From the NCBI GenBank assembly GCA_958295535.1, contig OY282356.1, positions 1,945,614-2,009,613 on the forward strand: a stretch of 64,000 nt of DNA. Reading direction: 5' to 3'. The stretch comes from Gemmatimonadota bacterium. Lineage in GTDB: Bacteria; Gemmatimonadota; Gemmatimonadetes; Palauibacterales; Palauibacteraceae. A model generated the notes under the pieces. That model worked only from the letters and a program-made list of their open reading frames with translations, was not told the DNA's origin and did not search any database. The stretch's first letter is position 1. Each line of letters starts with the position of its first letter. The translations under genes and the position numbers were made by a program. Below, piece by piece: positions 16,450 through 64,000 of the stretch.

Positions 16450-16470
16450 TATGGACCAACACGGCACGAT

Positions 16471-26106: not shown

Positions 26107-26202
26107 TTTCTGGACCGCCCACAGTGCCAGGGGAGGGGATACAATATGGGACTGGAGTTGCCGTAACGGGAGCGAAGGCCATTCCTCGAAGAAACCGCCC
26201 AG

Positions 26203-34422: not shown

Positions 34423-34531
34423 CCGGCAATCGACGGATGGATACCGACCCCAGCCCGAGAGGATTATGCGGCCCGCTCCCGGAACGCGAAGCGCGGACCA
34501 AGAAACGCGGGCGCCGCCGTGCCCGCGCGCG

Positions 34532-41164: not shown

Positions 41165-41305
41165 GCGGCTTCGCGGAGGCGAAGGAGGTATATTGGCAGC
41201 CCTGATCGGAGTGGTGGAGGAGCGAGTCCGGGCGGCGTTGCCGAACGGCCATGTCGAGGAAATCAAGCACGAGTTCGGCGCACTGTCGTCTGCGGAGCGG
41301 CTCTA

Positions 41306-46861: not shown

Positions 46862-47090
46862 AAGACGCCACGGCCGGCGCGGTTCCCTTTGCCGCCGCCA
46901 AGCAGGACCCTGGAACCAACCGACCGCCGCTCGGTTCGAAGCGGTTCGCCGGAGACACGCACCATTTCAGAGCATGAGGACATTGCATGACTTGAAGAAT
47001 ATCTCACGCGCGTTCGAATATCAATCTATCGCGACAACCGCCCTGTCTCCTCCAGAATGGGATAAGCTGCTACATACGCCTATCTTCGAG
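46862..47090 (-). repeat. ~230-bp non-coding leader upstream of the GT2 genes, duplicated at 49558..49760
   Basis: 46862..47090 and 49558..49760 are about 95% identical and colinear with the downstream GT2 starts. The segment is locally AT-richer (gttgtcgcgatagattgatattcgaacgcgcgtgagatattcttcaagtcatgcaatgtcc on the minus strand) and contains short palindromes (TTCGAA, TCGCGA). Confidence 0.4.
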
Positions 47091-48482: not shown

Positions 48483-49557
48483 ACCGCCCTGAACCGGGGT
48501 GAAGAAACCGATTCCCCAGCTACCGATTCCCCAGCTCAGGTGCATGGTCGCTAGGGCCAGCGGGAGCAGGAGCGCGGCGTACGAACGGCGACGGATGCCG
48601 ACCGCCAGAGAGCCGAGCGCCAGGGTGAGCACGTACGCTAGCGGCACTGCCGCTGCCGCCCAGGAGGCGCCGGCCACGGCCAAGACCGACGAAGCGGCCA
48701 ATCCCAGCAGCAACAGCGGGCTGCCGAGATGCCGGGGCAGCAGGGATAATCGATGTCGTAGCGCCACGACCCGCTTCCATCGGCCGTAATCGAAATATTG
48801 CCAAGCGAGACCCCGCAAAGTATTGCGGGGATGGTAGTCGACCACGAGCTCGGGATCGAACCACACCGTTTCCCCGTTCCCCGCGCGCCCGAAGCCGCCA
48901 GTTGAGTTCGTAGTCCTCGGCTCGCACAAGGGTAGGGTCGACGCCGGCCACCGCCTCCAACGCATCGCGCCGGAACGCGCCCAGGAAGACGGTGCGAGCA
49001 GGCCCCTCCGCGCCGCCCAGCCGGTAGCGGGCGCAGCCGGCCCCCAGGGGAGTGGTCATCGCCATCGCCACCGCGCGCCCGAAGAACGTGACGCCGACCG
49101 GCCGTTGCCGGCCGCCGACGTTCGCCGCCCCCGTCCTTTGCAACGTGCTCACCGCGCGGCGCACGTATCCGGCCGGCAACACCGTATGGGCGTCGCACCG
49201 CACGATGACCTCTCCGTCCGCCGCCCGGTACGCCGCGTGGATTCCGTGCGTGATGACCTGCTCCAGATTGGGAACCAGCGTCACTGTCGGGTACAGCCGC
49301 CGAACCAAGTCGGATGTGGCCGACGTGTCGGATCCGTCGGCGACGATTACCTCTACCGAACCCTCGTAGTCCTGAGACAACACCGAGTCGATCGCCGCCC
49401 CGATGGTCGCCTCGGCGTTCCGAGCCGGGATGAGAACCGACACCGGCGGCAGTCGAGTCGCAGCGGCCGGCTGCGGGACGACAATGGAATTCTCCTTCAT
49501 GTCCCATGACTGCAATGGTGTCGAACCGGACGCCACCGGCAAGCGTTCAGTTTTCAC
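48453..49557 (-). pseudogene. GT2 glycosyltransferase, third copy, frameshifted (split into ORFs 48520..49557 and 48453..48965)
   Basis: The N-terminal 228 aa are ~95% identical to module 1 of 44786..46861. The frame is lost after RLRARGE, and the conserved continuation (TVWFDPELVVDY...GFFTPVQGGSTETAAPLH*) appears in another frame. Small local duplications are present (WGIGSWGIG; ccgattccccagct x2). Confidence 0.65.
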
Positions 49558-49760
49558 AAGACGCCACGGCCGGCGCGGTTCCCTTTGCCGCCGCCAAGCA
49601 GGACCCTGGAACCAACCGACCGACGCTCGGTTCGAAGCGGTTCGCCGGAGACACGCACCATTTCAGAGCGGGAGGACATTGCATGACCTGAGAATATCTC
49701 ACGCGCGTTCGAATATCAATCTATCGTGCCACAACCGCCCTGTCTCCTCCAGAGGCAAGC
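49558..49760 (-). repeat. Second copy of the ~230-bp GT2 leader region
   Basis: See 46862..47090. Confidence 0.4.
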
Positions 49761-49765
49761 CGGAT

Positions 49766-50170
49766 CTACTCGACCAGGGGGATGAACCTGCGCCACGGAT
49801 GCCACTCCGTTTCCCACTCCGCGCGCAGCCGGAACTCGTGGGCGGCACCGCATACCTCCGGCCCCGGCGCATCCCAGCGCAGCTCGAGGATGGAGGGCCG
49901 GGACTGCGGCGACGATTTCGCTGTATGCCACGTCGCCGTCCGCCCCGCGCGTACGGAGGTGCACGGAGTATTTCCGTACGGGCAAGGTACGTGCGATCCA
50001 GTGGACGAGGCTCCGGTCCCCGCGCCCGTCCGCTCTTCGGCGCCGACGCGGAGATCCTCGATAGCGGAGGGGCCGCCACCGATGAGTCCCACGATCTGTC
50101 GGGCTTCCTCCGCGGTGACCGCCGTCCAGAGGCCGCGCCATACCGATTTGCTTGCGACTGACGCCCAAGC
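49766..50170 (-). pseudogene. Remnant of a PQQ-dehydrogenase/cytochrome-c paralog: signal-peptide region fused to the C-terminal tail
   Basis: ccataccgatttgcttgcgactg (also at 63240..63262, the 5' end of 61389..63284) is joined to a ~80%-identical copy of the last ~130 codons of that gene (GLIGGGPSAIEDLRVGAEERT...HEFRLRAEWETEWHPWRRFIPL vs GLIGADADAIDNLRVGAKERT...HEFRLRADGKREWGPWRRFIPL), with frame disruption. Confidence 0.55.
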
Positions 50171-50209
50171 GTAATCCCCCGCAGCGGTCTCGCTAGCTTT
50201 GTCTCTCCG

Positions 50210-51367
50210 CTATCTTGGGCGATGGTCACCCGCATTTTGCTGCCGCCGGTTCGTGGAGGTGGCCACCGGCTTCATCCCGTAGCAACTGCGGCAATAGTGC
50301 GGAATGTCGTTGTCGGCAATTCGTCGGCGCAGTTCCCTGTATTTGTCGTTGTTCCAAACATCGGCGAATGGCTCACTAAAAACGTTGCCCATTTTTACGA
50401 CGCTGGAATCGGCTATTTGACAGCAGGGGACGACGTCGCCGTTGGCGGCAATGTAGGAACTCTGCCAAGGCCAGGGACAGCGGTTCGCCCTGGAATACCT
50501 TTGACCATGCTCGACGCTGAGCGGCATCCCGATCTCGGCGGCGACTTCTCTCGACTTCCGGATAGTCCGGTCCACCCGGGCATCTTCCCTGGAAACGTCT
50601 ATCGACGCAATTGACTCCTCCATCTCCTCTTTTCCCCAGTCGGTCAGCAAGGTCGTTATAGTCAATTTGTCCACGCCGAGGCGTTTCGCCAGCCGCACCA
50701 AGTCCGGCAGTTCGTGGGCATTCCGGAGCGTAACGACCGACCGCAGTTCGATCCCGGGCCAGACGCTGCGGCCGCGGCGGCGGACTAGGTCGGCGACATT
50801 GTCGACCACCTTCTGAAAGTTGCCGTTGACCCGGATTGCCTCGAACGTCTCTGCCGTCGCGCCGTCCATGCTGATGATAATCGTCGTTCCCCGCAGGCAG
50901 CTAAGCTGCTTGGCGATATTCTCGGTATAAACCGAACCATTGGTTACGATGGAGATGGCCCTCCCCCCAATCTCTCCCTCTTCCAGCATCTCGATCAGAT
51001 GCCGGTTCAGCAGGGGTTCTCCCATTCCCTGGAGCTTGATCTGACGAAGCATCGGCAACTGACGGAGAATCGAAATGAACCGCTCGGTGGTCAACCGGGT
51101 CGTCTTCCGCGCCCAGTGCGTCACTTGGCAATGGTCGCAGGCAAAGTTGCACGTATCGATCGGCTCGACGTCAACGCTGGTGGGCAGGAAAGGAGTCCTT
51201 TTCAGCCCGAGAAGCTTGGCTGCCCGCCCGCCGACGGTGTGATAGAACTTTCGAGGACTACCCATTCCTGCCCGGCGCCATAGTCGAAAGAGACTTCGGA
51301 AACTATGATTCATTTCCAAGCGAACTCCACATAGCCTGATTTTTTGTCCCCGCCTACCGTCACGCAT
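50210..51367 (-). CDS. Radical SAM protein with C-terminal SPASM-like Cys-rich domain
   Basis: CxxxCxxC motif (IDTCNFACDHCQV), a radical SAM core (LQGMGEPLLN) and a C-terminal Cys cluster (CPWPWQSSYIAANGDVVPCCQ...YCRSCYG). The start is uncertain (MNHSF at 51313 or MGSPRKF at 51265). A 3' fragment copy lies at 58456..58700. Confidence 0.75.
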   Translation of the reverse strand: MRDGRRGQKIRLCGVRLEMNHSFRSLFRLWRRAGMGSPRKFYHTVGGRAAKLLGLKRTPFLPTSVDVEPIDTCNFACDHCQVTHWARKTTRLTTERFISILRQLPMLRQIKLQGMGEPLLNRHLIEMLEEGEIGGRAISIVTNGSVYTENIAKQLSCLRGTTIIISMDGATAETFEAIRVNGNFQKVVDNVADLVRRRGRSVWPGIELRSVVTLRNAHELPDLVRLAKRLGVDKLTITTLLTDWGKEEMEESIASIDVSREDARVDRTIRKSREVAAEIGMPLSVEHGQRYSRANRCPWPWQSSYIAANGDVVPCCQIADSSVVKMGNVFSEPFADVWNNDKYRELRRRIADNDIPHYCRSCYGMKPVATSTNRRQQNAGDHRPR

Positions 51368-51415
51368 CAGTCGGGCCTCTCCGCTTCTGAACGAGGAACG
51401 CCGCCGTGGCGCAGG

Positions 51416-51675
51416 CTAGGCCGATAACGAAATTGTAGGCCCCATGGTGAGCAGATGATTAAACGTCATGCCGTACATGGCCATCACGACAACCCATCCG
51501 ACGACTGAATCTCTGCCCAGTGGCTTCGGCACAGTCCAAAGCAACCGCATCAAGAATAACAGAGACAGCAAGCACAATGCCAATGGAATAATACCCGCTT
51601 CGCCAGCCAGTATCAGGTACACGTTGTGGACTCCAGTCGGTTCCCCCCGGTTTCCGATGGGGGCGCCAACGCCAC
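51416..51675 (-). pseudogene. Fragment of a Wzy_C (O-antigen ligase/polymerase) paralog C-terminus
   Basis: GAPIGNRGEPTGVHNVYLILAGEAGIIPLALCLLSLLFLMRLLWTVPKPLGRDSVVGWVVVMAMYGMTFNHLLTMG is ~85% identical to the C-terminus of 63324..64000. It is fused at ~51675 to the 3' end of the FAD-oxidoreductase pseudogene. Confidence 0.5.
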
Positions 51676-52892
51676 CGCGACGGTCCGAGCAACCTCCCGG
51701 CCCTGCCGGATCGCATAGTTCGTGCCCCGGTCTTCCAGATAGATCTGGGCCATGGTCGCCAGAAACAGGTTCGTCACAGGCATGCGCGTAGGGGGAATCA
51801 GCCGGCGGTAGCCGCGCTCCACGACGGGCTGCGCGTAGCGCGCGCGCCAGACGTGGGCAGCCAGTATCCGGTCGTCCGTCAGGTCGGGAAACATCCGCCG
51901 CAGGTGTTCGAGCGTGAACGCGACCGCTTCCTCGTCCGGCATCCCCCACAGCGCGTCGCTCTCGGGCAGATAGCGGGACAGATACACGATGTGCCGCCCG
52001 GCGTAGGTCGAGGCAGGCTCGAAGTTGGTGTGCTCGATGACTCCCACGAAGGGGAAGCCGGGGTCGTTGACGTTCAGCCAGTAGATGTCCGACAGGCTGC
52101 AGTCGAGCTCGAGCACGACGCACACATTGGCCAGATAGCGGATGCGCCGCAGGCCGTCCACGTAATCGCCCGGCGCGTACCCGCAAGCCCGTGACCGGAG
52201 CTCCGGTGCGGATTTCTCCACCTTGGTCTCGGATGGCCCGGGCCAGCGCGTCGGCGAGGGCTGCGAAGCCGCCGCGGTAATAGGCCAGCCGTTCCCTGCC
52301 GCCTCTGCCGCGGCTGCCGCCCCTGAGCTTGAGCTTGTTCCAGAACCACACCGCCGCCACCTCTTCCGCCAAGTCGCCGAACTTGCCCCGCAGGAGCGGC
52401 GCCCACACCACCCGGTAGACCCGCTCGCCACCCATGTCCCGCAGCCAGTCGGCCGCGGTGCGGTCTTCAAGGCCGCTCCACTCCTTCACCCGGCGCACGC
52501 GCAATGCCAGCAGCCCCAGCCGGATGCGGTCGAAGAACGGAAGGGGCGAGAAGCGCAGGAGGTCGAGGGGCGTCGAGAGCTTGAAGAAGTCGTGGGCGTA
52601 GTACGTGCTGGTCCGGGTAGGACGCAGCACCACCTCGGCCGACCGGCCCAACTCCGCGATGAGATTCATCACATGGACGTCGCTGGTGAACCAGTGGTGG
52701 TAGAACTTCTCGAGCCGCACCGGCGGCGGGAAAGCTGCCGGCGAGGCCGCCGACTTCGGCGTCCCGCTCCAGCACCGTGGCGCGTAGGCCGCGCCGGCCC
52801 AACTCGTAGGCCGCGGCTAGCCCGCAGAAGCCGCCGCCGATCACCGCGACATGGGGCCGGGCAGACGCCGGCCGTCGTGGGCTACTTGTCAA
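51676..52892 (-). pseudogene. FAD/NAD(P)-binding oxidoreductase (amine-oxidase/phytoene-desaturase-like fold), copy A; frameshifted by a 107-bp deletion and 3'-replaced
   Basis: Colinear with the intact copy 54852..56201 (HVAVIGGGFCGLAAAYELGRRG...). It lacks the 107-bp segment present at 55378..55484, which is bounded by a cgcgt direct repeat, and this causes a frameshift (ORFs 51613..52470, 51416..52720 etc.). Its 3' end is joined to the Wzy_C fragment. Confidence 0.6.
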
Positions 52893-54855
52893 AACGAATT
52901 TCCCCTTCCCAGAGGTGTGCGGTGGAGCCGTCCTCGCGGACGAGGAACTGGCCGGTGCGGACGCGGGCGATGGCGTAGTCGGGAAGCTCGCGCAGAGCGA
53001 CGCACCGCTCGGCTGACCGAAACCAACGGCCACCACGGTCGTTGACGCGGAAGTCGAGGTTGTCGAAGCCGTACTGCTTTCTGTGATCAGGAAGGTCGTT
53101 CTCGTCCGCCGGGACAACATGCAGGAAGAAGGTTTCCTGCGCGTCCTCTGCACCGCACGACTCCTTGACATAGATCAACATGTCCTCGGTGAGATGGACA
53201 TCGAAGGTGGAGCGGATTGACGGCTTACGAGTCAAGATTGCCTCCAAATCTCTCACCGCATCAGTAGCGTGACGGTTTATCAAGGCTGCCGCATCTTCAA
53301 TCAGATAGACGTCATGGGGTCCAAACACGACCTGCTCAACCGAAAGCCCGGACATATCCGGTAGCCAGGGACCGACAAACCAGATTCTTCCGTCCACGAT
53401 GCCGGACCAGTGGGCCAAATCAGCCATCTCGCGGAGACACGACTTGGAGGAGCGCCAGCACCAACCGGAGTTTCCATAGTGGTAATTGGCCGGTCTTTCT
53501 TCATTTCCTCGATAGAACCGCATGGCCGGGACCGCCCCCCAGTCTGCGTAGACCATGTCCTCTTCCCGCACCCGTTCTTTCAGTACGGCGAGAACGGATT
53601 CGATGTTTACGGCAAGAGCGGGATCGATGTTTTCACGTGTCTGGTACGGACTGTCCTGCCGCATGGCGCCCACCCCGGCAAGCACCATCGCGCCGGCCAT
53701 CGCAACGAGCAAGGCCGGCGTCGTCCACCCCCGGCGCGTGAGCGAGGACAAACGACCGGCGGTCCAATGAAACGCCAAGCCGACCGCCAGGAAGACAATC
53801 GGACCCAGATAGATGGTCTGGCGAATGCCCCCAAGCGGATATATTCGCAGCACGGCAGCACCGACCAGAACTGCAAGGGAAAGCGAAAATAAAACTGCGA
53901 TGGCACCGTCAATGGGGTTTCCTCGAAACTTTCCGAGGAGTGCTGTGGCGAGGAGGATCGCGAATGCGGCAAGCGCCGCTATCGCAACGACATCCGGCAA
54001 ATGATACGTCAATAGACTCCAGATCCCGTCAATCGAAAACTCGAAGACCTCGAGGATCGAGTGCGGGTAGAATTTTCCCTGATAGTAATACGGTCGCAGA
54101 TAGCCGGTCGGGGCGAAGTCCGGTGCACCCAACTGATAGCGCGCAGTCATCAAGTAGCTTGTGGCACCTCCCGCCAGAAAGCACGCCGCTGGCGCGAGCA
54201 GGGCGATGCGCTGCCTGAGCCAATGAGGAATCCGGCTCAGGTACGAGTTCCATTCCGATGCCCCTAAAGTCGGGGGGGGGGGCAGAACCACAGCGGCGCC
54301 AATGACGGCGACGCCGAACAGAACCAAGCCGTACTGGAGCAAGGGCGCGAGGAACAGCGCAACGCAGAGCAGGGCCTTCCGGCCGTGCCGCAGATACCAC
54401 AGCAGTCCCGCTATCATCAGCGTGGCCAGCAGCGCGTCGATGGAGTATTCGCGCGCATCCTGGGCGTGATATATCGCGGCAACCGAAAGAGTCGCCAGCA
54501 GCGCCGCCAGAAACGCGGCCCACCGGCTCGCTCCGGCGCGGGGAAGCAGAAAGAGCAGGGCCGCCACGGTCAGAACGCTGGCCGCCGCCGGCAGAACGCG
54601 GATGCTGAAGGCGGATACATCCACTTTCTGCACCGCCCACAGCGCCAGAGGGTACAGTATAGGCGAGGAGTTCCCGTAGCGGGTATTGGGGACTACTTCC
54701 GAGAGAGCGCCACTCGAATTATTGGCCGCTGCCGCTTCGTCATGCCGTAGAGACTTCTCCGGCAGGTCATGGAAGCGCAGCCCTGCCGCGGCGACAAGCA
54801 GGCAAACACAGGCCGCGTAGAACAGATGCGTTTTGCGGTCCCAGCTGAATGTCAT
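52882..54855 (-). CDS. ArnT/PMT_2-like GT-C membrane glycosyltransferase, paralog A, with shared C-terminal domain; contains a C11 homopolymer
   Basis: ATG 54855 (MTFSWDRKTHLFYAACVCLLVAAAGLRFHDL...); the listed 943-aa ORF adds an out-of-frame overlap with the upstream gene. First-loop motif LRHDEAAAANNS (ArnT-like DE), ~12 TM helices. CTD: SIRSTFDVHLTEDMLIYVKESCGAEDAQETFFLHVVPADENDLPDHRKQYGFDNLDFRVNDRGGRWFRSAERCVALRELPDYAIARVRTGQF. About 85-90% identical to paralog B. Confidence 0.75.
   Translation of the reverse strand: MTFSWDRKTHLFYAACVCLLVAAAGLRFHDLPEKSLRHDEAAAANNSSGALSEVVPNTRYGNSSPILYPLALWAVQKVDVSAFSIRVLPAAASVLTVAALLFLLPRAGASRWAAFLAALLATLSVAAIYHAQDAREYSIDALLATLMIAGLLWYLRHGRKALLCVALFLAPLLQYGLVLFGVAVIGAAVVLPPPPTLGASEWNSYLSRIPHWLRQRIALLAPAACFLAGGATSYLMTARYQLGAPDFAPTGYLRPYYYQGKFYPHSILEVFEFSIDGIWSLLTYHLPDVVAIAALAAFAILLATALLGKFRGNPIDGAIAVLFSLSLAVLVGAAVLRIYPLGGIRQTIYLGPIVFLAVGLAFHWTAGRLSSLTRRGWTTPALLVAMAGAMVLAGVGAMRQDSPYQTRENIDPALAVNIESVLAVLKERVREEDMVYADWGAVPAMRFYRGNEERPANYHYGNSGWCWRSSKSCLREMADLAHWSGIVDGRIWFVGPWLPDMSGLSVEQVVFGPHDVYLIEDAAALINRHATDAVRDLEAILTRKPSIRSTFDVHLTEDMLIYVKESCGAEDAQETFFLHVVPADENDLPDHRKQYGFDNLDFRVNDRGGRWFRSAERCVALRELPDYAIARVRTGQFLVREDGSTAHLWEGEIRFDK
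54272..54282 (-). repeat. Homopolymeric tract G11 (C11 on the coding strand) inside GT-C paralog A, encoding Pro-Pro-Pro-Pro
   Basis: cccctaaagtcGGGGGGGGGGGcagaacc on the plus strand; on the coding strand gtt ctg ccc ccc ccc ccg act tta gives VLPPPPTLG. Paralog B has no tract at the equivalent position (..LVAPRVSGQARW..). Confidence 0.9.
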
Positions 54856-56201
54856 CCTGCACCTTCCGACGCCGCCGCGACGGTCCGGGCAACCTCCCGG
54901 CCCTGCCGGATCGCATAGTTCGTGCCCCGGTCTTCCGGATAGATCTGGGCCATCGTCGCCAGAAACAGGTTCGTCACAGGCATGCGCGTAGGGGGGATCA
55001 GCAGCCGGTAGCCGCGCTCCACGACGGGCTGCGCGTAGCGCGCGCGCCAGACGTGGGCAGCCAGTATCCGGTCGTCCGTCAGGTCGGGAAACATCCGCCG
55101 CAGGTGTTCGAGCGTGAACGCGACCGCTTCCTCGTCCGGCATCCCCCACAGCGCGTCGCTCTCGGGCAGATAGCGGGACAGATACACGATGTGCCGCCCG
55201 GCGTAGGTCGAGGCAGGCTCGAAGTTGGTGTGCTCGATGACTCCCACGAAGGGGAAGCTTGGGTCGTTGACGTTCAGCCAGTAGATGTCCGACAGGCTGC
55301 GGTCGAGCTCGAGCACGACGCACACATTGGCCAGATAGCGGATGCGCCGCAGGCCGTCCACGTAATCGCCCGGCGCGTGAGGCGCCACGAGGTCGGCGAC
55401 GATGGGCAGCGCCGGCGTCGCGATCACGGCGTCGGCGGCCAGCGTCGCCTCCGGCGTGACCACGCCGGTCCCCCGCCCGTCGCGTACCCGCAAGCCCGTG
55501 ACCGGAGCTCCGGTGCGGATTTCTCCACCTTGGTCTCGGATGGCCAGGGCCAGCGCGTCGGCGAGGGCTGCGAAGCCGCCGCGGTAATAGGCCAGCCGTT
55601 CCCTGCCGCCTCTGCCGCGGCTGCCGCCCCTGAGCTTGAGCTTGTTCCAGAACCACACCGCCGCCACCTCTTCCGCCAAGTCGCCGAACTTGCCCCGCAG
55701 GAGCGGCGCCCACACCACCCGGTAGACCCGCTCGCCACCCATGTCCCGCAGCCAGTCGGCCGCGGTGCGGTCTTCAAGGCCGCTCCACTCCTTCACCCGG
55801 CGCACGCGCAATGCCAGCAGCCCCAGCCGGATGCGGTCGAAGAACGGAAGGGGCGAGAAGCGCAGGAGGTCGAGGGGCGTCGAGAGCTTGAAGAAGTCGT
55901 GGGCGTAGTACGTGCCGGTCCGGGTAGGACGCAGCACCACCTCGGCCGACCGGCCTAACTCCGCGATGAGATTCATCACATGAACATCGTTGGTGAACCA
56001 GTGGTGGTAGAACTTCTCGAGCCGCGCACCGCCGGCGGGAAAGCTGCCGGCGAGGCCGCCGACTTCGGCGTCCCGCTCCAGCACCGTGGCGCGTACGCCG
56101 CGCCGGCCCAACTCGTAGGCCGCGGCTAGCCCGCAGAAGCCGCCGCCGATCACCGCGACATGGGGCCGGGCAGACGCCGGCCGTCGTGGGCTACTTGTCA
56201 A
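54852..56201 (-). CDS. FAD/NAD(P)-binding oxidoreductase (amine-oxidase/phytoene-desaturase-like fold), intact copy B
   Basis: Rossmann dinucleotide motif RPHVAVIGGGFCGLAAAYELGRRGVRATVLERDAEVGGLAGSF, then ~400 aa (..YYRGGFAALADALA..; ..GVVTPEATLAADAVIATPALPIVADLV..). The start is ambiguous: TTG 56201 overlaps the upstream GT-C stop; GTG 56153 is the alternative. The upstream part of the listed 542-aa ORF is out-of-frame overlap with GT-C B. Confidence 0.7.
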   Translation of the reverse strand: MTSSPRRPASARPHVAVIGGGFCGLAAAYELGRRGVRATVLERDAEVGGLAGSFPAGGARLEKFYHHWFTNDVHVMNLIAELGRSAEVVLRPTRTGTYYAHDFFKLSTPLDLLRFSPLPFFDRIRLGLLALRVRRVKEWSGLEDRTAADWLRDMGGERVYRVVWAPLLRGKFGDLAEEVAAVWFWNKLKLRGGSRGRGGRERLAYYRGGFAALADALALAIRDQGGEIRTGAPVTGLRVRDGRGTGVVTPEATLAADAVIATPALPIVADLVAPHAPGDYVDGLRRIRYLANVCVVLELDRSLSDIYWLNVNDPSFPFVGVIEHTNFEPASTYAGRHIVYLSRYLPESDALWGMPDEEAVAFTLEHLRRMFPDLTDDRILAAHVWRARYAQPVVERGYRLLIPPTRMPVTNLFLATMAQIYPEDRGTNYAIRQGREVARTVAAASEGAG

Positions 56202-58173
56202 AACGAATTTCCCCTTCCCAGAGGTGTGCGGTGGAGCCGTCCTCGCGGACGAGGAACTGGCCGGTGCGGACGCGGGTGATGGGGTAATCGGGAAGCTTGC
56301 GCAGAGCGACGCACCGCTCGGCTGACCGAAACCAACGGCCACCACGGTCGTTGACGCGGAAGTCGAGGTTGTCGAAGCCGTACTGCTTTCTGTGATCAGG
56401 AAGGTCGTTCTCGTCCGCCGGGACAACATGCAGGAAGAAGGTTTCCTGCGCGTCCTCTGCACCGCACGACTCCTTGACATAGATCAACATGTCCTCGGTG
56501 AGATGGACATCGAAGGTGGAGCGGATTGACGGCTTACGAGTCAAGATTGCCTCCAAATCTCTCACCGCATCAGTAGCGTGACGGTTTATCAAGGCTGCCG
56601 TATCTTCAATCAGATAAACGTCATGGGGTCCAAACACGACCTGCTCAACCGAAAGCCCGGACATATCCGGTAGCCAGGGACCGACAAACCAGATTCTTCC
56701 GTTTGCGATGCCGAGCCAGTAGGCCAAGTCAGCCATCTCACGGAGACACGAATTGGAGGAGTTCCCGCACCAACCGGAGGTCCCATAGTGGTAATTGGCC
56801 GGTCTTTCTTCATTTCGTTGATAGAACTGCAAGATCGGGACTGCCCCCCAGCCTGCGTAGACCATGTCCTCTTTCCGCATCCGTTCTTTCAGTACGGCGA
56901 GAACGGATTTGATGTTGTTACGTATCTGGTACGGACTGTCCTGCCGAATGGCGCCCACCCCGGCAAGCACTGTCGCGCCGGCCATCGCAACGAGCAAGGC
57001 CGGCGTCGTCCACCCCCGGCGGGTGAGCGAGGACAAACGACCGGCGGTCCAATGAAACGCCAAGCCGACCGCCAGGAAGACAATCGGACCCAGATAGATG
57101 ACTTGGCGGGTGCCTCCAAGCGGATATATTCCCAGCACGGCGGCACCGACAGAAACCGCAAGGGAAAGCGAAAATAGAACTGCGATGGCGCCGTCATGGG
57201 GCTTTCCTCGAAACTTTCCGAGGAATGCTGCGACCAGGAGGATCGCGAATGCGGCAAGTGCCGCTATCGCAACGACATCCGGCAAATGATATGTCAATAG
57301 ACTCCAGATCCCGTCAATCGAAAACTCGAAGACCTCGAAGATCGAGTGCGGGTAGAATGTTCCCTGATAGTAATACTGTCGCAGATAGCCGGTCGGGGCG
57401 AAGTCCGGTTGACCCCACTGATGGCGTACAGTCACCAAGTAGCTGACGGTACTCCCCGCCAGGAAGAACCCACAGGGCGCGACCAAGTCCAGGCGTCGTT
57501 TCAACCAGCCACCGATCCGGCCAGGATAGGCACTCCACCTTGCCTGTCCGGAGACGCGTGGAGCGACGAGGGCGGCGCCAATGACGGCGGCGCCGAACAG
57601 GACCAAACCGTACTGGAGCAACGGCGCAAGGAACAGCGAAACGCAAAGCAGGGCCTTCCGGCCGTCCCGCAGATGTCGCAGCAGCCCCGCCATCATCAGC
57701 ACGGTAAGCAGTGCGTCGATAGAGTATTCCCGCACATCCTGGGCGTGCCAGATTGCTTCAACGGAAAGCGTGGCGAGCAGGGCCGCCAGAAACGCGGCGC
57801 CCCGAGCGACGCCGAGACGCGGCAGCAAGAAGAGCATCAAGGCGATGGTCAGAACGCTGGCCGTCGCCGGCACGATTCGAACGCTGAAGGGCGTGCTCTC
57901 GACTTTCTGGACCGCGTACAGGACCAGGGGGTACAGGATTGGAGAGGAGTTAGCGTAACGGGTACCGGGGATGACTTCCGAGAGCGCACCTCTCGAAATA
58001 TTGGCCGCTGCCGCTTCGTCATGCCGTAGAGACTTCTCCGAAAGGTCATGGAAGCGCAGCCCCGCCGCGGCGACAAGCAGGCAGACACAGGCGGCGTAGT
58101 ACAGACGCGTTTTGCGGTCGCGGCCGAAATCAGCGATGCGCCGGGTCATGGCGCGCATCCCTATCGCTCGCAT
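56191..58173 (-). CDS. ArnT/PMT_2-like GT-C membrane glycosyltransferase, paralog B, with shared C-terminal domain
   Basis: 660 aa. LRHDEAAAANISRGALSEV first-loop motif, ~12 TM helices, CTD identical in motif to paralog A (...FFLHVVPADENDLPDHRKQYGFDNLDFRVNDRGGRWFRSAERCVALRKLPDYPITRVRTGQF). Confidence 0.75.
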   Translation of the reverse strand: MRAIGMRAMTRRIADFGRDRKTRLYYAACVCLLVAAAGLRFHDLSEKSLRHDEAAAANISRGALSEVIPGTRYANSSPILYPLVLYAVQKVESTPFSVRIVPATASVLTIALMLFLLPRLGVARGAAFLAALLATLSVEAIWHAQDVREYSIDALLTVLMMAGLLRHLRDGRKALLCVSLFLAPLLQYGLVLFGAAVIGAALVAPRVSGQARWSAYPGRIGGWLKRRLDLVAPCGFFLAGSTVSYLVTVRHQWGQPDFAPTGYLRQYYYQGTFYPHSIFEVFEFSIDGIWSLLTYHLPDVVAIAALAAFAILLVAAFLGKFRGKPHDGAIAVLFSLSLAVSVGAAVLGIYPLGGTRQVIYLGPIVFLAVGLAFHWTAGRLSSLTRRGWTTPALLVAMAGATVLAGVGAIRQDSPYQIRNNIKSVLAVLKERMRKEDMVYAGWGAVPILQFYQRNEERPANYHYGTSGWCGNSSNSCLREMADLAYWLGIANGRIWFVGPWLPDMSGLSVEQVVFGPHDVYLIEDTAALINRHATDAVRDLEAILTRKPSIRSTFDVHLTEDMLIYVKESCGAEDAQETFFLHVVPADENDLPDHRKQYGFDNLDFRVNDRGGRWFRSAERCVALRKLPDYPITRVRTGQFLVREDGSTAHLWEGEIRFDK

Positions 58174-58633
58174 CGGGCCTCCCCCGCGGCGTCCGGCCGG
58201 ATCGCTCCGAAGACGGCGGCATTCAACGGCCCGGCGACACGCAAAACAGCCGAAGCGTCCAGTATCTTCAAGGATTGCTCAGAGACGCGGGGGCCCTTGT
58301 GCATTGTCGGCCAAGGGAACGAAGAACGCTTTGTTGGCCACCTTGTCCTCCTTGATTCGCTGTAACAGACGCCTGAAGCCAAGATGGCGCAGAGCAAAAG
58401 CCGCACCAGTGCCCAAAGGCCGAGAGCCACAAAGACCTGGCACCCACCGCCAAGTTCACGGCTCGTCGCGGCGTGCGGTCGAACTTCGGCGCTCCGCAGA
58501 GGGAAGGCAAGATTGCGGCCGCGGGTCCGTGGAGGCGGCTACCCGCTTCATCCCGTAGCAACCGCGGCAATAGTGCGGAATGTCGCCGCTGGCAATTCGC
58601 CGACGCAGCTCCCGGTATTTGTCGTTGTTCCAA
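58161..58633 (-). pseudogene. Degraded sulfotransferase paralog fragment
   Basis: LCGAPKFDRTPRRAVNLAVGARSLWLSAFGHWCGF and SEQSLKILDASAV match the C-terminal region of 41306..42160 (LCRAPKFDRVPRQAANQAVAARSLWLSAFGHWCGF; SEESLGVLDASAV). There is no N-terminal PAPS-binding part and the frame is broken. Confidence 0.5.
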
Positions 58634-58700
58634 ACATCGGCTTGTCCACCGAGGCGGATCAAGAGTTCGGATTTTCTGATAATCTCATCTATCTGCGGCG
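58456..58700 (-). pseudogene. 3' fragment of a radical-SAM/SPASM paralog
   Basis: ADVWNNDKYRELRRRIASGDIPHYCRGCYGMKRVAAST matches the C-terminus of 50210..51367 (ADVWNNDKYRELRRRIADNDIPHYCRSCYGMKPVATST). The nucleotide match begins ~58530. Confidence 0.5.
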
Positions 58701-58787
58701 AATGGTCTTCCTGGCGGTAGAGAAAAATATGTCTATCGCGGTCGCGACGGAAACGGACGATGCGTCGGGCTATGGCGCGCGCATCCC

Positions 58788-60138
58788 TTATCGCTCGCAT
58801 CGGGCCTCCACCTCGACTCCCGTCCAGATCGTTGTAGCTGCGCGGTTGTTTGGAGGTCTCCTCCGAATCAAGGGCCATGCGATGTACCGAGAACCCGTCA
58901 TCGCGCACCGTCCGACGCCGCCGCGACGGTCCGGGCAACCTCCCGGCCCTGCCGGATCGCATAGTTCGTGCCCCGGTCTTCCGGATAGATCTGGGCCATC
59001 GTCGCCAGAAACAGGTTCGTCACAGGCATGCGCGTAGCGGGGATCAGCAGGCGGTAGCCGCGCTCCACGACGGGTTGCGCGTAGCGCGTGCGCCAGACGT
59101 GGGCAGCCAGTATCCGGTCGTCCGTCAGGTCGGGAAACATCCGCCGCAGGTGTTCGAGCGTGAACGCGACCGCTTCCTCGTCCGGCATCCCCCACAGCGC
59201 GTCGCTCTCGGGCAGATAGCGGGACAGATACACGATGTGCCGCCCGGCGTAGATCGAGGCAGGCTCGAAGTTGGTGTGCTCGATGACTCCCACGAAGGGG
59301 AAGCTTGGGTCGTTGACGTTCAGCCAGTAGATGTCCGACAGGCTGCGGTCGAGCTCGAGCACGACGCACACATTGGCCAGATAGCGGATGCGCCGCAGGC
59401 CGTCCACGTAATCGCCCGTCGCGTACCCGCAAGCCCGTGACCGGAGCTCCGGTGCGGATTTCTCCACCTTGGTCTCGGATGGCCAGGGCCAGCGCGTCGG
59501 CGAGGGCTGCGAAGCCGCCGCGGTAATAGGCCAGCCGTTCCCTGCCGCCTCTGCCGCGGCTGCCGCCCCTGAGCTTGAGCTTGTTCCAGAACCACACCGC
59601 CGCCACCTCTTCCGCCAAGTCGCCGAACTTGCCCCGCAGGAGCGGCGCCCACACCACCCGGTAGACCCGCTCGCCACCCATGTCCCGCAGCCAGTCGGCC
59701 GTGATGCGGTCTTCGAGGCCGCTCCACTCCTTCACCCGGCGCACGCGCAATGCCAGCAGCCCCAGCCGGATGCGGTCGAAGAACGGAAGGGGCGAGAAGC
59801 GCAGGAGGTCGAGGGGCGTCGAGAGCTTGAAGAAGTCGTGGGCGTAGTACGTGCCGGTCCGGGTAGGACGCAGCACCACCTCGGCCGACCGGCCCAACTC
59901 CGCGATGAGATTCATCACATGAACATCGTTGGTGAACCAGTGGTGGTAGAACTTCTCGAGCCGCACCGGCGGCGGGAAAGCTGCCGGCGAGGCCGCCGAC
60001 TTCGGCGTCCCGCTCCAGCACCGTGGCGCGTACGCCGCGCCGGCCCAACTCGTAGGCCGCGGCTAGCCCGCAGAAGCCGCCGCCGATCACCGCGACATGG
60101 GGCCGGGCAGACGCCGGCCGTCGTGGGCTACTTGTCAA
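58788..60138 (-). pseudogene. FAD/NAD(P)-binding oxidoreductase, copy C; carries the same 107-bp frameshifting deletion as copy A
   Basis: Colinear with copy B. It is split over ORFs 58788..59966, 58898..59677 and 59320..60303. The deletion point (...atcgcccgtcgcgtacccgcaagcc...) is the same as in copy A. Confidence 0.6.
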
Positions 60139-61002
60139 AACGAATTTCCCCTTCCCAGAGGCGTGCGGCGGAGCCGTCCTCGCGGACGAGGTACTGGCCG
60201 GTTCTGATTTCGGAGATGCCGTATTCCGGGATAGGGACCGTTGCCAGGCACTTGTCATCGAATCTGTCGCCGTGCCGGTCGAAATAGAAGTCCAGGTTGT
60301 CAAAGCCGTTCCGCTTGCGATCGTCTGGCAGGTCTGCCACCTCGACGGGATACAGGTGCAGAAAGAACGCCGCCTCCGTGTCGGCGCGGGCGCACGGGTC
60401 CTTGGCGAAGATCAGACTTCCCTCGCCAAGATAGACGTCGAACACACTGCGAACCGCTGGCTCGCCGACAGTCGCCGACGACAAGTGGGCGTCTAGCCAC
60501 CGCCGTTTCTCCTTGAACCAGCGCTCCACTTCCCAAAGGAGATTCCAATCGCGGTCAACCTGTCCGGTTCGGTAGCCGCTTTCACATAGTTGCCGAACTG
60601 CCACCAACTCTAGCAAGGGGTCCCGAGACAAGGCGCTTCGGGGGTCGTCGGCCTGCTGCCGAGAGCACTCTAACCCCTGGTCACGGAAATGGAAATAGAG
60701 GACGTGCACCTCTCCGCCGCCAAGTGTGGTCGACCATGCGGACCGTAGATGATCCGGTTCGCATGGCAGGGCGTAATGGCGTCGCGGACTGTCGGCGTAC
60801 AATGCCATGACGGAGACGGCATTGCTCCGGATCGCGCCTGTCAGAGCCGCCTCCCGAATGTACTGGACGCTCTCCGAATTCCTCTACCGCGGGGTGGCAA
60901 ACGCATGTTGCGCACCGGCATTCCAGCGCGGCATCTCGCGGGCATTCAGCACAACCAGCCAAACCGCCTGCAGGGACAGCGCCAACATCAGGACGGCCGC
61001 GA
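60128..61002 (-). pseudogene. Deletion derivative of a GT-C paralog related to 38528..41164: mid-region fragments + intact shared C-terminal domain only
   Basis: ORF 60128..60808 contains HYALPCEPDHL...SRQQADDPRSALSRDPLLE and GQVDRDWNLLWEVERWFKEKRRW, which match internal segments of paralog 4. It ends with a full CTD (VRSVFDVYLGEGSLIFAKDPCARADTEAAFFLHLYPVEVADLPDDRKRNGFDNLDFYFDRHGDRFDDKCLATVPIPEYGISEIRTGQYLV...). No TM/GT-C core. 60700..61000 matches 39750..40050 in another frame. Confidence 0.6.
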
Positions 61003-61366
61003 GGGCCCTCGCCCGTGAACGCGATGTCCTGATGGCGGTGTCGAGCTCCGGAACGTCGGCGAACATCGTGGATGCCGCTCGAACCGCTCTCGAGATCGGG
61101 ATGGACTTGGTGACATTCTCGGCATTCTCGGCCGACAACCGCTTGCACAAGCTGCAATCCACACTTTCCTTCCATACGCCGACCGATATCTACGGACACG
61201 CCGAACTAGCCCATGCAGCGTTGATTCACGCCGCTGTCGACATATGTTCTCGATGGGAAGAGGAAAGATGACTATCACTCGCACCCCTTATAGCGGCATA
61301 TGCTTGTCCTACTCCAAGACGGAGACAGTTCGAACTTCGAAAGACTTGGAGCATGACATAGTGCGT
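61003..61366 (+). pseudogene. Duplicate fragment of the gmhA 3' end and hddA 5' end (with internal deletion)
   Basis: 61003..61270 is ~97% identical to 42943..43207 (ARERDVLMAVSSSGTSANIVDAARTALEIGMDLVTFSAF...SRWEEER*). It is followed by an hddA start (MTITRTPY) with ~120 bp deleted, and homology ends at ~61366. Confidence 0.65.
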
Positions 61367-61388
61367 GCGAACCGACTCCGGGGCACTG

Positions 61389-63284
61389 TCAGTCCCTATT
61401 GCTCGTCGCCCCTCCGTCATGCCTAGCCTGCGTCGACAGGGGAATGAACCTGCGCCAGGGACCCCACTCCCTTTTCCCGTCCGCCCGCAGCCGGAACTCG
61501 TGAGTGGCGCATGCCTCCGGCGCCGGCGCCTGCGCGTCCCAGCGCAGCACGAAGCCGCCGTCGCGGTCCGGGACCGCGGCGACGACCTCGCTGTATGCCG
61601 CTTTGCCGTTCGTGGTCCGCGTACGCAGTTGCGCGGCGTATTTCAATCCGTGCGTGATCCCTGCTATCCGATGGGCGAGGGTCCGGCCCCCGCGTCTGTC
61701 CGTCCGCTCTTTGGCGCCGACGCGGAGATTGTCGATGGCGTCGGCGTCAGCGCCGATGAGTCCCACGATCTGCCGGGCCTCCTCCGCGGTGAGCGCCGGG
61801 CCGGTCATAGTGGTTCCGGGAGCGAACCCCTGCGGGTCCACGAGGTAGCGCTCCATGTCACCGGGCGTCCAGGCCTGGTCCAGAGACCGCAGGGCGTCAG
61901 AGAACCCGGCGAAACCCTCCACTGCGCCCGCGCGCCTGCCGAGCGCGCCCACGAGATGGGGCCCGGCGCGATGGGTTTTCTCGCTCAGGGAGTGGCACTC
62001 GGCGCAGCGCAGAGCGAACAGACGCGAGGCGGCGCAGTTCAGCATGGCGGTGCGTTCCTCGTCGATGCGGCGCAACAGTTTGACCCGGCCCGAATCGATC
62101 AGGAGAGCCAGACGACCGTCCGGCAGGAAGGTCAGGTCGCGGATCGGCCCGCCGCCGACCAATATCCTCTCAACATACTGGATGACCCGGCCGCGGCGGC
62201 GCACCCGGAAGATCGAGTGGCCGCCGGGGATGCCTTCGAGGTAAGAGGTTCCGCTCAGCGAGGCGATCAGCAGATCGTCGTCCCACAAGGGAAATGCCCG
62301 GCGGTCGTTCACCGTCAGAGCGGAGACTCCCGGCGACGGCGCCCAGGCGAAAACGGGCCGCGTGAAGCCGTCGTGCCGACCCTCCATTCCATACTGCCGA
62401 GAGGTCGCGTCCCCATACGGAAGACCGTAGCTGACCTGCGGAAAGCCATAGTGCCGGCCGGGTTCGAGCAGGTTGAGTTCGTCGCCGCCGCGCGGCCCGT
62501 GTTCGGCGGCCCACAGGTCGCCCGCCGCGTCGCGCGCCAGCCCTTGCGGATTGCGATGCCCGCGCGTCAGCGTTTCGGCGGCGCCGGTCCCGATCTCGAT
62601 GCGGAGGAGTTTGCCCAGATCGAGTTCGTCATCCAGAAGTTCATCATCGCTCGCGTCGTGATGCCCCACCAAGACCAGGAGGTGGTCCGGGCCATCCATC
62701 AACATGCGTCCCCCGGCTTGAAGCCCGGCGAGGAGGAAGCAGGGCCGGGCATCGAAAACCGTCCTCCAGGCGTCTGACAACTCCACGTCCCGCTCGTCTC
62801 GAAGCAACGTCGTGGCTGACACCCGGAACAGGAAACACTCCCCGGTGAAGTAGTGGTGGGAGACGAACAGCTCGAAGCGACCGGGCGAATGCTCCTTCAG
62901 CAGAATGTCCGACACCCAGGCGCGGTGTAAGGGGATTTCGATTCCCGCCTCCCCGCCCATCGGAACCCGGCCGTCGAGATACCGAAACGCGCCGTCCGGG
63001 GTCATGAGGGCGAGTCGGCCTCGCGGCGTGGCGATGAGCAGGTCGTCGCCCAGAACCTCTATCGCGCCCCCAACTCCGGCGAACGGCTCAAGCGAGTAGG
63101 TCTCGGTCTCCAGCGCATATAGATGGGTCCGCAGGACCGCCTCTTCCGCCCCGGCTCCGACCCCCCTCCCCCCAAGCTGGTCGGAGCAAGCGGCTGTCGC
63201 GACCCAAAACGCGGTGACCGCCGCCGTCCATAAGCCGCGCCATACCGATTTGCTTGCGACTGGCGCCCAAGGGCATTCGTTCAT
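61389..63284 (-). CDS. PQQ-dependent soluble sugar (aldose) dehydrogenase-like beta-propeller fused to a C-terminal cytochrome c domain
   Basis: Signal peptide with Cys (GLWTAAVTAFWVATAAC). Soluble glucose/sorbosone dehydrogenase signatures: GHRNPQGLARDAAGDLWAAEHGPRGGDELNLLEPGRHYGFP. C-terminal heme-binding CAECH motif (NCAASRLFALRCAECHS) followed by a ~150-aa tail. Confidence 0.7.
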   Translation of the reverse strand: MNECPWAPVASKSVWRGLWTAAVTAFWVATAACSDQLGGRGVGAGAEEAVLRTHLYALETETYSLEPFAGVGGAIEVLGDDLLIATPRGRLALMTPDGAFRYLDGRVPMGGEAGIEIPLHRAWVSDILLKEHSPGRFELFVSHHYFTGECFLFRVSATTLLRDERDVELSDAWRTVFDARPCFLLAGLQAGGRMLMDGPDHLLVLVGHHDASDDELLDDELDLGKLLRIEIGTGAAETLTRGHRNPQGLARDAAGDLWAAEHGPRGGDELNLLEPGRHYGFPQVSYGLPYGDATSRQYGMEGRHDGFTRPVFAWAPSPGVSALTVNDRRAFPLWDDDLLIASLSGTSYLEGIPGGHSIFRVRRRGRVIQYVERILVGGGPIRDLTFLPDGRLALLIDSGRVKLLRRIDEERTAMLNCAASRLFALRCAECHSLSEKTHRAGPHLVGALGRRAGAVEGFAGFSDALRSLDQAWTPGDMERYLVDPQGFAPGTTMTGPALTAEEARQIVGLIGADADAIDNLRVGAKERTDRRGGRTLAHRIAGITHGLKYAAQLRTRTTNGKAAYSEVVAAVPDRDGGFVLRWDAQAPAPEACATHEFRLRADGKREWGPWRRFIPLSTQARHDGGATSNRD

Positions 63285-63323
63285 GATAGTCCGTATTAGT
63301 TAGCGCGCATGCCCCCGCCGCCG

Positions 63324-64000
63324 TCATGCCGCAGTTGGGTCGCTTTGCCTCTGAACGAGGAACGCCGCCGTGGCGCAGGCTAGGCCGATAAAGAAATTGT
63401 AGGCCCCCATGGTGAGTAGATGATTGAACATTAGGCCGTACAGGGCCATCACGACAACCCATCCCACGACCAAGTCTCTGCCCAAGGACTTCGGCACAGT
63501 CCAAAGCAACCGCGTCAAGAAGAACAGAGACAGCAAGTATAATGCCAGTGGAATAATGCCCGCTTCGCCAGACAGCATTAAGTAGACGTTGTGGACTCCA
63601 GTCGGTTTCCCCTGGTTTCCGATGGGAGCGCCCTCCATATAGTGGAGCTGATACAAGCCGTGACCTGCAATGGGCGATTCCAGGACCTTATTGAAACCCA
63701 TCTCCCACAATAGCATTCGTCTCGATAGCGCTCTCCCGCTACCGACGTTGGAATCGTCTTTGCCTCTGAAAGCCTCCACGGTATTGCCCGGCTCCTTCAG
63801 TAGCCGACCCAACACGCCGGCATCCGTCGCGGCAGCTGCGGATGCCGCCATGATCGGGCCTATGGCCTTCGTCTGAACCCGGTGCATCGTGCCATTCTTC
63901 TCGTAGGACACCCAGGCGCGCAAGAACTTGCCCTCGTCTTCGCCCGCCGGGACGTATTTGGGCGAGAGCGCGCCTTCGATGTCGGTCCAAGCGGCGTCGT
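63324..64000 (-). CDS. Wzy_C (O-antigen ligase/polymerase) family protein with WxW module, partial (N-terminal part beyond window end)
   Basis: The frame is open to position 64000. It reads ...DAAWTDIEGALSPKYVPAGEDEGKFLRAWVSYEKNGTMHRVQTKAIGPIMAA (the module shared with 6780..8627) then ...AGHGLYQLHYMEGAPIGNQGKPTGVHNVYLMLSGEAGIIPLALYLL (Wzy_C motif). Confidence 0.6.
   Translation of the reverse strand, partial: DAAWTDIEGALSPKYVPAGEDEGKFLRAWVSYEKNGTMHRVQTKAIGPIMAASAAAATDAGVLGRLLKEPGNTVEAFRGKDDSNVGSGRALSRRMLLWEMGFNKVLESPIAGHGLYQLHYMEGAPIGNQGKPTGVHNVYLMLSGEAGIIPLALYLLSLFFLTRLLWTVPKSLGRDLVVGWVVVMALYGLMFNHLLTMGAYNFFIGLACATAAFLVQRQSDPTAA

Follow-up and report, generated by a model that had tools for sequence, protein, structure and literature searches.

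Tandem pairs of GT-C glycosyltransferase and FAD oxidoreductase genes, with two oxidoreductase copies carrying the same lesions, in a glycan island of a Gemmatimonadota bacterium

Among the described systems for periplasmic glycosylation, several are made up of three components, such as GtrA/GtrB/GtrC, ArnC/ArnEF/ArnT and CsbB/GtcA/YfhO (PMC11127046). The decaprenyl-phospho-arabinose pathway, which follows the logic of a lipid-linked arabinofuranose, combines a UbiA-type phosphoribosyltransferase, the flavin adenine dinucleotide (FAD) oxidase DprE1 and the reductase DprE2 with Emb/Aft glycosyltransferases of the GT-C fold (hereafter GT-C; PMC11127046). Pentofuranosyl GT-C enzymes with a carbohydrate-binding module (CBM), which belong to pentofuranose systems of Gram-negative bacteria, constitute family GT136, of which C. 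youngae ORF12 is the founding member (Kelly et al. 2024, PMC11127046). Here we compare with these systems a locus found in a stretch of 64,000 nucleotides of a Gemmatimonadota bacterium (assembly GCA_958295535.1, contig OY282356.1, positions 1,945,614 to 2,009,613), called the window below, to which all coordinates refer. The locus is an array of three units, A to C, each pairing a gene for an FAD oxidoreductase with a GT-C gene or its remnant, all on the minus strand. As in other cases of tandem duplication, pseudogenisation and concerted evolution, it displays head-to-tail duplication at a microhomology, repeat-mediated deletion, frameshifts and mosaicism; relative to ordinary decay of tandem duplicates it is notable only in that two copies carry the same two lesions, with a differing junction.

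Self-BLASTN of the region between 50 and 62 kb and a repeat finder both recovered the predicted array, with three copies of a 449-aa oxidoreductase gene that are approximately 98% identical. Copies A (51666-52956) and C (58912-60202) align without gaps over 1291 nt at 97.9% identity. Copies B and C align in two blocks (55474-56265 with 59413-60202, 98.7%, one gap; 54851-55378 with 58897-59424, 98.3%) which overlap by 12 nt in C and lie 95 nt apart in B. The spacing of the copies, measured from start to start, shifts by exactly 107 nt (3307 versus 3200, and 3939 versus 4046), and similarity of the GT-C genes extends the alignment between units A and B by a further 2.7 kb at 90.7%. An uninterrupted 449-aa product is obtained by translation from copy B only (oxB), copies A and C not being translatable end to end.

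In each unit the GT-C gene is transcribed before the oxidoreductase gene, the reverse of the order originally predicted, in which the oxidoreductase always preceded a GT-C. The oxidoreductase gene begins with a TTG codon inside the 3' end of the GT-C gene, and the resulting 11-nt overlap, identical in all three units, suggests translational coupling of the two genes. At its other end, oxB overlaps by its TGA stop the ATG start of gtcA (ATGA). This joint is the junction of the head-to-tail duplication, at which the start of gtcA was created, with 13 N-terminal codons fewer than in gtcB and its orthologues. The gtcA frame remains open for 286 codons further upstream, through oxB in the wrong frame, yielding a spurious 943-aa open reading frame (ORF; 52882-55713, minus strand) of the kind that automatic gene callers may mis-annotate in GC-rich DNA. 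An out-of-frame ORF also accounts for position 58788, initially taken as the end of copy C; the homologous end is the TGA at 58898-58900. A scan of positions 50000-61500 for promoters and terminators gave chance-level results only, and Rfam and tRNA scans over the entire window returned no match.

A three-way alignment shows that the same 107 nt of copy B is absent from copies A and C. In B this stretch encodes ...DGRGTGVVTPEATLAADAVIATPALPIVADLVAPHAP (residues ~241-277), and its limits are marked by an imperfect direct repeat of 12 nt, ACGCG[A/C]CGGGCG on the minus strand, the two copies of which are exactly 107 nt apart: ACGCGACGGGCG on the left (55474-55485) and ACGCGCCGGGCG on the right (55367-55378). 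The original prediction of a 107-bp frameshifting deletion shared by A and C, with B alone intact, is borne out by alignment and translation; the short repeat cgcgt proposed to bound it is present too, as a portion of this longer and imperfect 12-mer. The deletion junction of copy C (within 59410-59428) reads ACGCGACGGGCG, i.e. the left-repeat type with base A, and that of copy A (within 52164-52182) reads ACGCGCCGGGCG, the right-repeat type with base C. In orthologues, a 9-bp repeat (CGCCGGGCG) is found at both corresponding positions. Copies A and C have a second lesion in common, a 2-bp deletion with an adjacent G>C change (GGTGCGCGGC in B, GGTGCGGC in A and C), located within 59955-59970 in copy C and within 52709-52724 in copy A. 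The reading of B at this site, GSFPAGGARLEKFYHHWF, corresponds to the family consensus, with GGARLEKF in 12/12 homologues. Because both deletions together amount to 109 nt, the frame is shifted twice and never restored in either copy. In copy A, moreover, the last 14 nt with the stop codon are missing, the gene being joined at this point to part of an O-antigen-ligase (Wzy_C) gene.

The polarity of the 107-bp difference was obtained by aligning copy B with 12 homologues of 72-90% identity. All 12 contain the corresponding 36-residue segment, in which nine residues are invariant (G242, V259, T262, P263, L265, P266, L271, P274 and H275). Since every homologue carries the segment, the difference is a deletion in A and C; an insertion in B, the alternative that had been left for checking, is ruled out on the same grounds, and copy B matches the NF005560 profile over its full length. 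Substitutions were polarised using four orthologous genes of related genomes as outgroups. Derived changes are non-synonymous and synonymous in ratios of 9:3 on A and 5:1 on C, versus 0:2 on B, and they include replacements at family-invariant columns in copy A (G96S, R301C, P422L) as well as in copy C (A147T, T332I, A387T). Such ratios are typical of neutral decay in copies A and C and of constraint on copy B. This pattern of derived changes, together with the loss of invariant sites, argues against sequencing error and identifies A and C as true pseudogenes, as expected from the outset, with two frameshifting deletions and relaxed constraint in each, and no stop codon of its own in A.

The GT-C partners had been described as intact, which holds for gtcA and gtcB. 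Both keep every residue that is invariant in their family (30 homologues), including D52-E53 directly after the first transmembrane segment, and the ratio of non-synonymous to synonymous substitution rates (dN/dS) between them is 0.43 over the whole length and 0.24-0.32 in the 5' half, where they have diverged. The partner in unit C ("GT-C C") is the inactivated remainder of another paralogue. A tblastn search with the 883-aa protein of a relative recovered its residues 397-519 and 736-883 only, the reading frame contains an in-frame stop, and there is no transmembrane or catalytic domain. At the nucleotide level this remnant is 80-81% identical to the paralogue at 38528-41266 of the window. 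The ORF previously singled out as a truncated GT-C is hence only a part of it, as homology of this 883-aa type runs on to position 60970.

The three oxidoreductase copies do not form a simple genealogy. Within the 5' 830 nt, A and C are grouped by three derived characters (nt 170 and the deletions of 2 and 107 bp); 3' of the longer deletion, B and C are grouped with A as the outlier (nt 942, 943, 1199, 1248 and 1334), and a further site or two unite A with B. The mosaic pattern has a Fisher p of ~0.02-0.03 on unambiguous sites, which are very few. A comparable gradient is seen between the GT-C genes: gtcA and gtcB are 70-83% identical in the 5' half and 96-100% in the 3' half, with a synonymous divergence (dS) of 0.5-1.2 and below 0.1, respectively, and an orthologue from another genome shares 93-96% identity with the 5' half of gtcB. 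These patterns point to gene conversion among the copies of the array, which has blurred its history. The choice offered originally, between a single broken ancestor and a recurrent deletion, does not present itself as a clean either/or, the copies being mosaic and the junction base differing. We nevertheless consider it likely that the linked broken haplotype arose once and was then spread by duplication or conversion.

The array itself is unremarkable, the product of duplication and decay within a surface-glycan island that is highly plastic. Most probably, it represents a locally duplicated piece of an operon for lipid-linked periplasmic glycosylation, shaped by duplication, redundancy and decay with conversion. 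A pair of GT-C and oxidoreductase genes was duplicated head to tail, on this reading by illegitimate recombination, an event that fused the stop of oxB to the new start of gtcA, with a third pair, containing a different GT-C paralogue, situated upstream. The oxidoreductase is predicted to be soluble and to act in trans, so that a single copy (B) would suffice and A and C would be redundant. The broken haplotype would have been formed by the G>C change, the 2-bp deletion and the 107-bp deletion, the latter by slippage or recombination between the 12-bp repeats, and would now reside in both A and C. Ongoing gene conversion would hold the three copies at ~98% identity and generate mosaics, and selection would keep B intact and both full-length GT-C genes open. 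A related locus (L002) has the same order of paralogue types, namely a gene for an 883-aa GT-C, a 35-aa oxidoreductase stub, a gene for an 805-aa GT-C and an intact oxidoreductase gene, and this parallel stub indicates that the upstream, redundant oxidoreductase has been lost more than once.

This history has to be weighed against three alternatives. The array or the shared deletion could be an artefact of assembly, with repeats or strain haplotypes mis-joined or collapsed. Repeats of 1.3-3.3 kb at 98% identity in a genome that is probably metagenome-derived invite such errors, JGI metagenome contigs scanned for the deletion junction did not contain it, and look-ups of the exact sequences of oxB (with two alternative starts) and gtcB returned no record. 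However, flanking sequences and private substitutions set the copies apart (27 differences between A and C), the junction between units A and B is a clean stop/start fusion that leaves gtcA open, and the 5' halves of gtcA and gtcB are 17-30% different, which is far above strain-level variation. Moreover, an independent genome (L002) has an analogous arrangement of two units in which the upstream oxidoreductase has decayed, and the window is rich in other segmental duplications and fragments. We therefore regard an artefact as very improbable. Even harder to credit is the idea that copies A and C are still expressed as working proteins, whether through programmed frameshifting or in shortened form. 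Long open frames do span the lesions in this GC-rich DNA (e.g. ORFs 59320-60303 and 58788-59966), but the frame would need correction at two separate places (-2 and -107 nt), 36 conserved residues of the FAD-domain core are gone and invariant residues are replaced in both copies; no slippery site was seen, though none was specifically searched for.

The third alternative, two independent losses of the 107 bp in A and C, each through slippage at the 12-bp repeats, appears unlikely but has several observations in its favour. The crossover would have preceded the mismatch in A and followed it in C, in keeping with junctions of right- and left-repeat type, C groups with B and not with A 3' of the deletion, and the site seems predisposed, given the 9-bp repeat of the orthologues. 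On this hypothesis, however, the 2-bp deletion and G>C change shared by A and C ~545 nt upstream need a separate short conversion tract or a coincidence, and the difference between the junctions can be explained without any second deletion if conversion from B stopped within the repeat. Two points nevertheless count against a single origin of the broken haplotype, or against the proposed history in general. Only ~10 sites are informative, which makes for a statistically weak inference of mosaicism, and A and C do not have the same base at the junction, each matching a different repeat copy of B. A single origin accordingly needs either later conversion or a coincident mutation, and the latter has an estimated probability of ~27/1291 x 1/3, or ~0.7%.

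The GT-C family to which gtcA and gtcB belong is without a Pfam model. Neither Pfam PMT nor PMT_2 includes it (gtcA scores 17.7 bits against PMT, cut-off 22.7), nor does NCBIfam Agl23 (gtcB 28.5 bits, cut-off 126), and a phmmer search of PDB sequences with gtcB found no match. The AlphaFold2 model of gtcB is of moderate confidence (mean predicted local distance difference test score, pLDDT, 61.6) and good in the C-terminal third. The top 25 PDB matches obtained with this model in Foldseek are all GT-C enzymes, at TM-scores of ~0.4, and include PglB (E=1e-6), STT3, AftA, ArnT, ALG9/12, PMT, DPY19 and Emb. The last ~120 residues form a beta-sandwich with weak FN3/Ig-like matches only. The corresponding C-terminal domain (CTD) module of ~105 residues has no Pfam match, occurs at least nine times in the window (Table 1), and is recognised by the motifs RS.FDVYL, FFLH..P, DLP..R, GFDNLDF, RTGQ and LWEGE. 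A library of 1.84 billion proteins yielded 2,262 cluster representatives with this module, which is repeated in tandem as many as 10 times in a single protein and is fused to Wzy_C, PMT-like (GT-C) and polysaccharide-deacetylase domains. By analogy with the CBM of the GT136 enzyme (PMC11127046), this suggests a periplasmic glycan-binding domain that has not yet been described. gtcA and gtcB resemble GT136 in their architecture, a GT-C followed by a C-terminal beta-sandwich.

Copy B of the oxidoreductase belongs to NCBIfam NF005560 (PRK07233), with a score of 516.9 bits (cut-off 252) over residues 14-444 of 449 and profile positions 2-431 of 435. The only name of this family in NCBIfam is "hypothetical protein", and a large protein search retrieved thousands of homologues of ~447 aa. 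Copy B also matches Pfam PF01593 (Amino_oxidase; 137.2 bits, threshold 19.8, residues 22-441) and NAD_binding_8 (46 bits), with the N-terminal GxGxxG motif VAVIGGGFCG. Its best characterised relatives are HpnE, CrtI, the plant phytoene desaturase 5mog (profile positions 10-412) and protoporphyrinogen oxidase (PPOX). It shares with them the N-terminal GxGxxG fold and the full-length Amino_oxidase domain, but it is a member neither of HpnE (TIGR03467; 105.8 bits over residues 15-415, cut-off 283) nor of the CrtI family (TIGR02734; 58.1 bits, cut-off 238), and its context is glycan biosynthesis rather than that of carotenoids, hopanoids or haem. The suggested amine-oxidase/phytoene-desaturase-like character is confirmed by this comparison with hidden Markov models, which places the enzyme close to desaturases and PPOX, outside any characterised family. 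UDP-galactopyranose mutase (Glf), the other candidate, was rejected: PDB entry 1i8t aligns at profile positions 13-90 only, with 29 bits, which corresponds to the dinucleotide fold, and no Glf model is found in any of the 11 Pfam matches or among the best 25 of 70 NCBIfam matches. Identity with DprE1 was likewise rejected, copy B having no match to PF01565 (FAD_binding_4).

The distribution of the oxidoreductase does not follow taxonomy closely. It is 75-80% identical in metagenome-assembled genomes (MAGs) labelled Nitrospirales, Binatia, Acidobacteriota (Marinacidobacterium) and Alphaproteobacteria (L006, L009, L012 and L014), and only ~60% identical in other Gammaproteobacteria, Methyloprofundus and Halioglobus (L025 and L042). 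This suggests that the gene may have been transferred recently between phyla sharing a habitat.

Gene neighbourhoods were compared at 71 loci from many phyla that had enough upstream sequence. A PgfS/ArnC-like GT2, of the polyprenyl-phosphate-sugar synthase type, lies upstream on the same strand in 77% of them, and a flippase-like LPG_synthase_TM gene lies upstream in 63%. In 66%, the cassette has as a neighbour an ORF for a polytopic membrane protein of at least 400 aa, usually located directly downstream of the oxidoreductase gene. In the closest relatives, which are MAGs of uncultured Gammaproteobacteria with 86-92% identity, the order is GT2, LPG_synthase_TM protein, GT-C and oxidoreductase, as in L001 and L003-L005, where the first two genes are found directly upstream. 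The GT2 of these relatives matches PgfS (305 bits) and ArnC (164 bits) over the full length, although in both cases below the cut-off, which marks it as a synthase of the polyprenyl-phosphate-sugar type; their flippase-like protein matches TIGR00374 and the flippase region of MprF. It is only in these closest relatives that the GT-C family of the window accompanies the oxidoreductase, the GT2 and the flippase-like protein being the most constant partners overall. The large membrane partner contains DUF2079 in Enterovibrio and DUF2298 in Iodobacter. Going by Pfam clan membership, these partners may be GT-C-like as well. In profile comparisons, the GT-C family of the window displayed no detectable homology to the membrane partners of Enterovibrio (DUF2079), Iodobacter (DUF2298) and Cyanothece (probability ~1% or less).

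Like the three-component systems, then, the relatives hold a GT2 synthase, a flippase-like protein and a GT-C in one operon. The cassette differs from these systems in the addition of an FAD oxidoreductase and in its flippase candidate, which is of the LPG_synthase_TM/MprF type and not GtrA, SMR or MATE, and in the window only the pairs of GT-C and oxidoreductase genes have been amplified. Judging from conserved gene order, the oxidoreductase probably adds a fourth component to a system of lipid-linked periplasmic glycosylation. As it is most tightly linked to the synthase of the lipid-linked donor, it is plausible that it modifies the product of the GT2, either in the sugar or in the isoprenoid tail, before transfer by the GT-C. 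The decaprenyl-phospho-arabinose pathway offers a precedent for a flavoenzyme that acts on the lipid-linked donor of a GT-C with C-terminal CBMs. To our knowledge, DprE1/DprE2 is the one known precedent of redox chemistry on a lipid-linked donor. Unlike DprE1, the oxidoreductase has the amine-oxidase/CrtI fold (PF01593) instead of the VAO/FAD_binding_4 fold; it has no partner reductase beside it, and the donor synthase is a GT2 and not of the UbiA type. It is tempting to go further, although we hold this extension to be somewhat doubtful, and to propose that the PRK07233-type flavoenzyme is an obligatory part of a widespread pathway of GT2, MprF-like flippase, oxidoreductase and GT-C-like protein, distributed from cyanobacteria to Bacteroidota and moved between phyla, in which it remodels a polyprenyl-phosphate-linked donor.

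Alternatively, the oxidoreductase could act on the isoprenoid carrier and not on the sugar, saturating or desaturating an isoprene unit and thereby setting apart a dedicated carrier pool. Its nearest characterised relatives all use long isoprenoid or otherwise hydrophobic substrates, and its tightest co-conservation is with a polyprenyl-phosphate-sugar synthase. On the other hand, all scores against these relatives are far below the family cut-offs (283 for HpnE, 238 for CrtI) and the DprE1/DprE2 precedent targets the sugar, so that we view action on the carrier as rather unlikely. A role in donor modification also meets some difficulties. A tblastn search of the 64-kb window found neither a PgfS-like GT2 nor a flippase-like gene, the array thus being detached from the rest of its presumed pathway, and another intact oxidoreductase gene may exist elsewhere in the genome. 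The AlphaFold2 model of copy B, based on 13 close homologues, has a pLDDT of 44.5 and is unusable for a fold search, and no paper on the oxidoreductase family was found by searching for PRK07233, the parts of the cassette, the DUF and Pfam names or GT-C expansions in sponge symbionts.

The remainder of the window contains further elements of glycan metabolism and further signs of rearrangement (Table 1). At 30099-38006, on the minus strand, lies a complete-looking pathway for a lipid-linked arabinofuranose donor, which resembles the three-component pentofuranose systems described previously (PMC11127046). Between 11800 and 14950, on the plus strand, a 747-aa B12-binding radical-SAM protein is encoded ahead of a protein that matches GINT1_N (132.7 bits). 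In eukaryotes this domain forms the N-terminal part of glucosamine inositolphosphorylceramide transferase 1, and it is unusual in a bacterial glycan locus. A tandem 3-kb duplication (14792-17795 and 17790-20813, 95% identity) comprises a sulfatase-like gene and an uncharacterised gene; its two halves differ by 14-, 1- and 2-bp indels, and one member of each gene pair is probably broken, which repeats the theme of decay among duplicates. The 726-aa ORF at 44786-46966 consists of two GT2 domains fused head to tail, and a single GT2-domain copy at 48520-49557 with 95% nucleotide identity to part of this ORF represents a further local amplification. Gene fragments are scattered across the island (60807-61370, 49699-50235 and 25885-26163). 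The scattered pieces include SIS-domain and GHMP-kinase fragments that are 97-98.6% identical to 42939-43229 and 43352-43426, a 178-aa ORF duplicating the C-terminal portion (cytochrome c) of the gene for glucose/sorbosone dehydrogenase at 61389-63284, and small N-terminal and CTD fragments of a GT-C gene.

Table 1. Features of the array and related elements in the 64-kb window (aa, amino acids).
Feature	Coordinates	Strand	Evidence or remark
"GT-C C", remnant of 883-aa-type GT-C paralogue	60131..60970	-	tblastn, nucleotide match, translation with in-frame stop
ORF of "GT-C C", 226 aa	60128-60808	-	one complete CTD kept
Oxidoreductase copy C, pseudogene	58898..60138	-	2-bp and 107-bp deletions; native TGA 58898-58900
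Spacer between units B and C, built of gene fragments	58174..58897	-	self-BLASTN
Spacer piece: copy of gtcB 5' end	58738-58831		matches 58114-58204
Spacer piece: radical-SAM/SPASM 3' fragment	58513-58641		matches 50237-50365
Spacer piece: sulfotransferase-like 3' fragment	58246-58512		matches 41385-41649
gtcB, intact 660-aa GT-C-fold glycosyltransferase	56191..58173	-	beta-sandwich CTD at ~residues 540-660
Oxidoreductase copy B (oxB), sole intact copy, 449 aa	54852..56201	-	NF005560, Amino_oxidase
107-bp segment and bounding imperfect 12-bp direct repeats	55367..55485	-	missing from A and C
Site of second shared lesion (2-bp deletion, adjacent G>C)	56016..56033 in B	-	
gtcA, intact 657-aa paralogue of gtcB	52882..54855	-	
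Oxidoreductase copy A, pseudogene	51666..52892	-	both deletions; last 14 nt replaced
O-antigen-ligase (Wzy_C) gene fragment abutting copy A	51345..51667	-	87% identical to 63310-63632
CTD module sites	2599-2928, 23883-24224, 25888-26034, 30890-31186, 38537-38863, 38900-39199, 52885-53241, 56194-56550, 60131-60478		
DprE2-like short-chain dehydrogenase/reductase (SDR)	30099-30845	-	PRK07102, 330 bits
DprE1-like FAD oxidase	33130-34572	-	431 bits, cut-off 500
UbiA phosphoribosyltransferase and HAD phosphatase fusion	34532-36130	-	PRK08238, 489 bits
GT-C paralogues with CTD, interleaved with DprE/UbiA genes	30842-33133, 36033-38006	-	

Two protein families that have so far gone unannotated, the GT-C family and the beta-sandwich repeat of ~105 residues, are amplified in a group of uncultured bacteria. 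The cassette in which the oxidoreductase resides is widely distributed and uncharacterised, and the position of its flavoenzyme between a synthase of lipid-linked sugars and a periplasmic transferase suggests a new way of modifying lipid-linked glycosyl donors. As the cassette also occurs in cultured Iodobacter, Tropicimonas, Enterovibrio, Novosphingobium and Cyanothece, its function is directly testable. If the proposal of an obligatory donor-remodelling flavoenzyme holds true, a DprE1-like logic would have been realised with an unrelated fold, and the array would record the diversification of transferases around a single donor-modifying enzyme.

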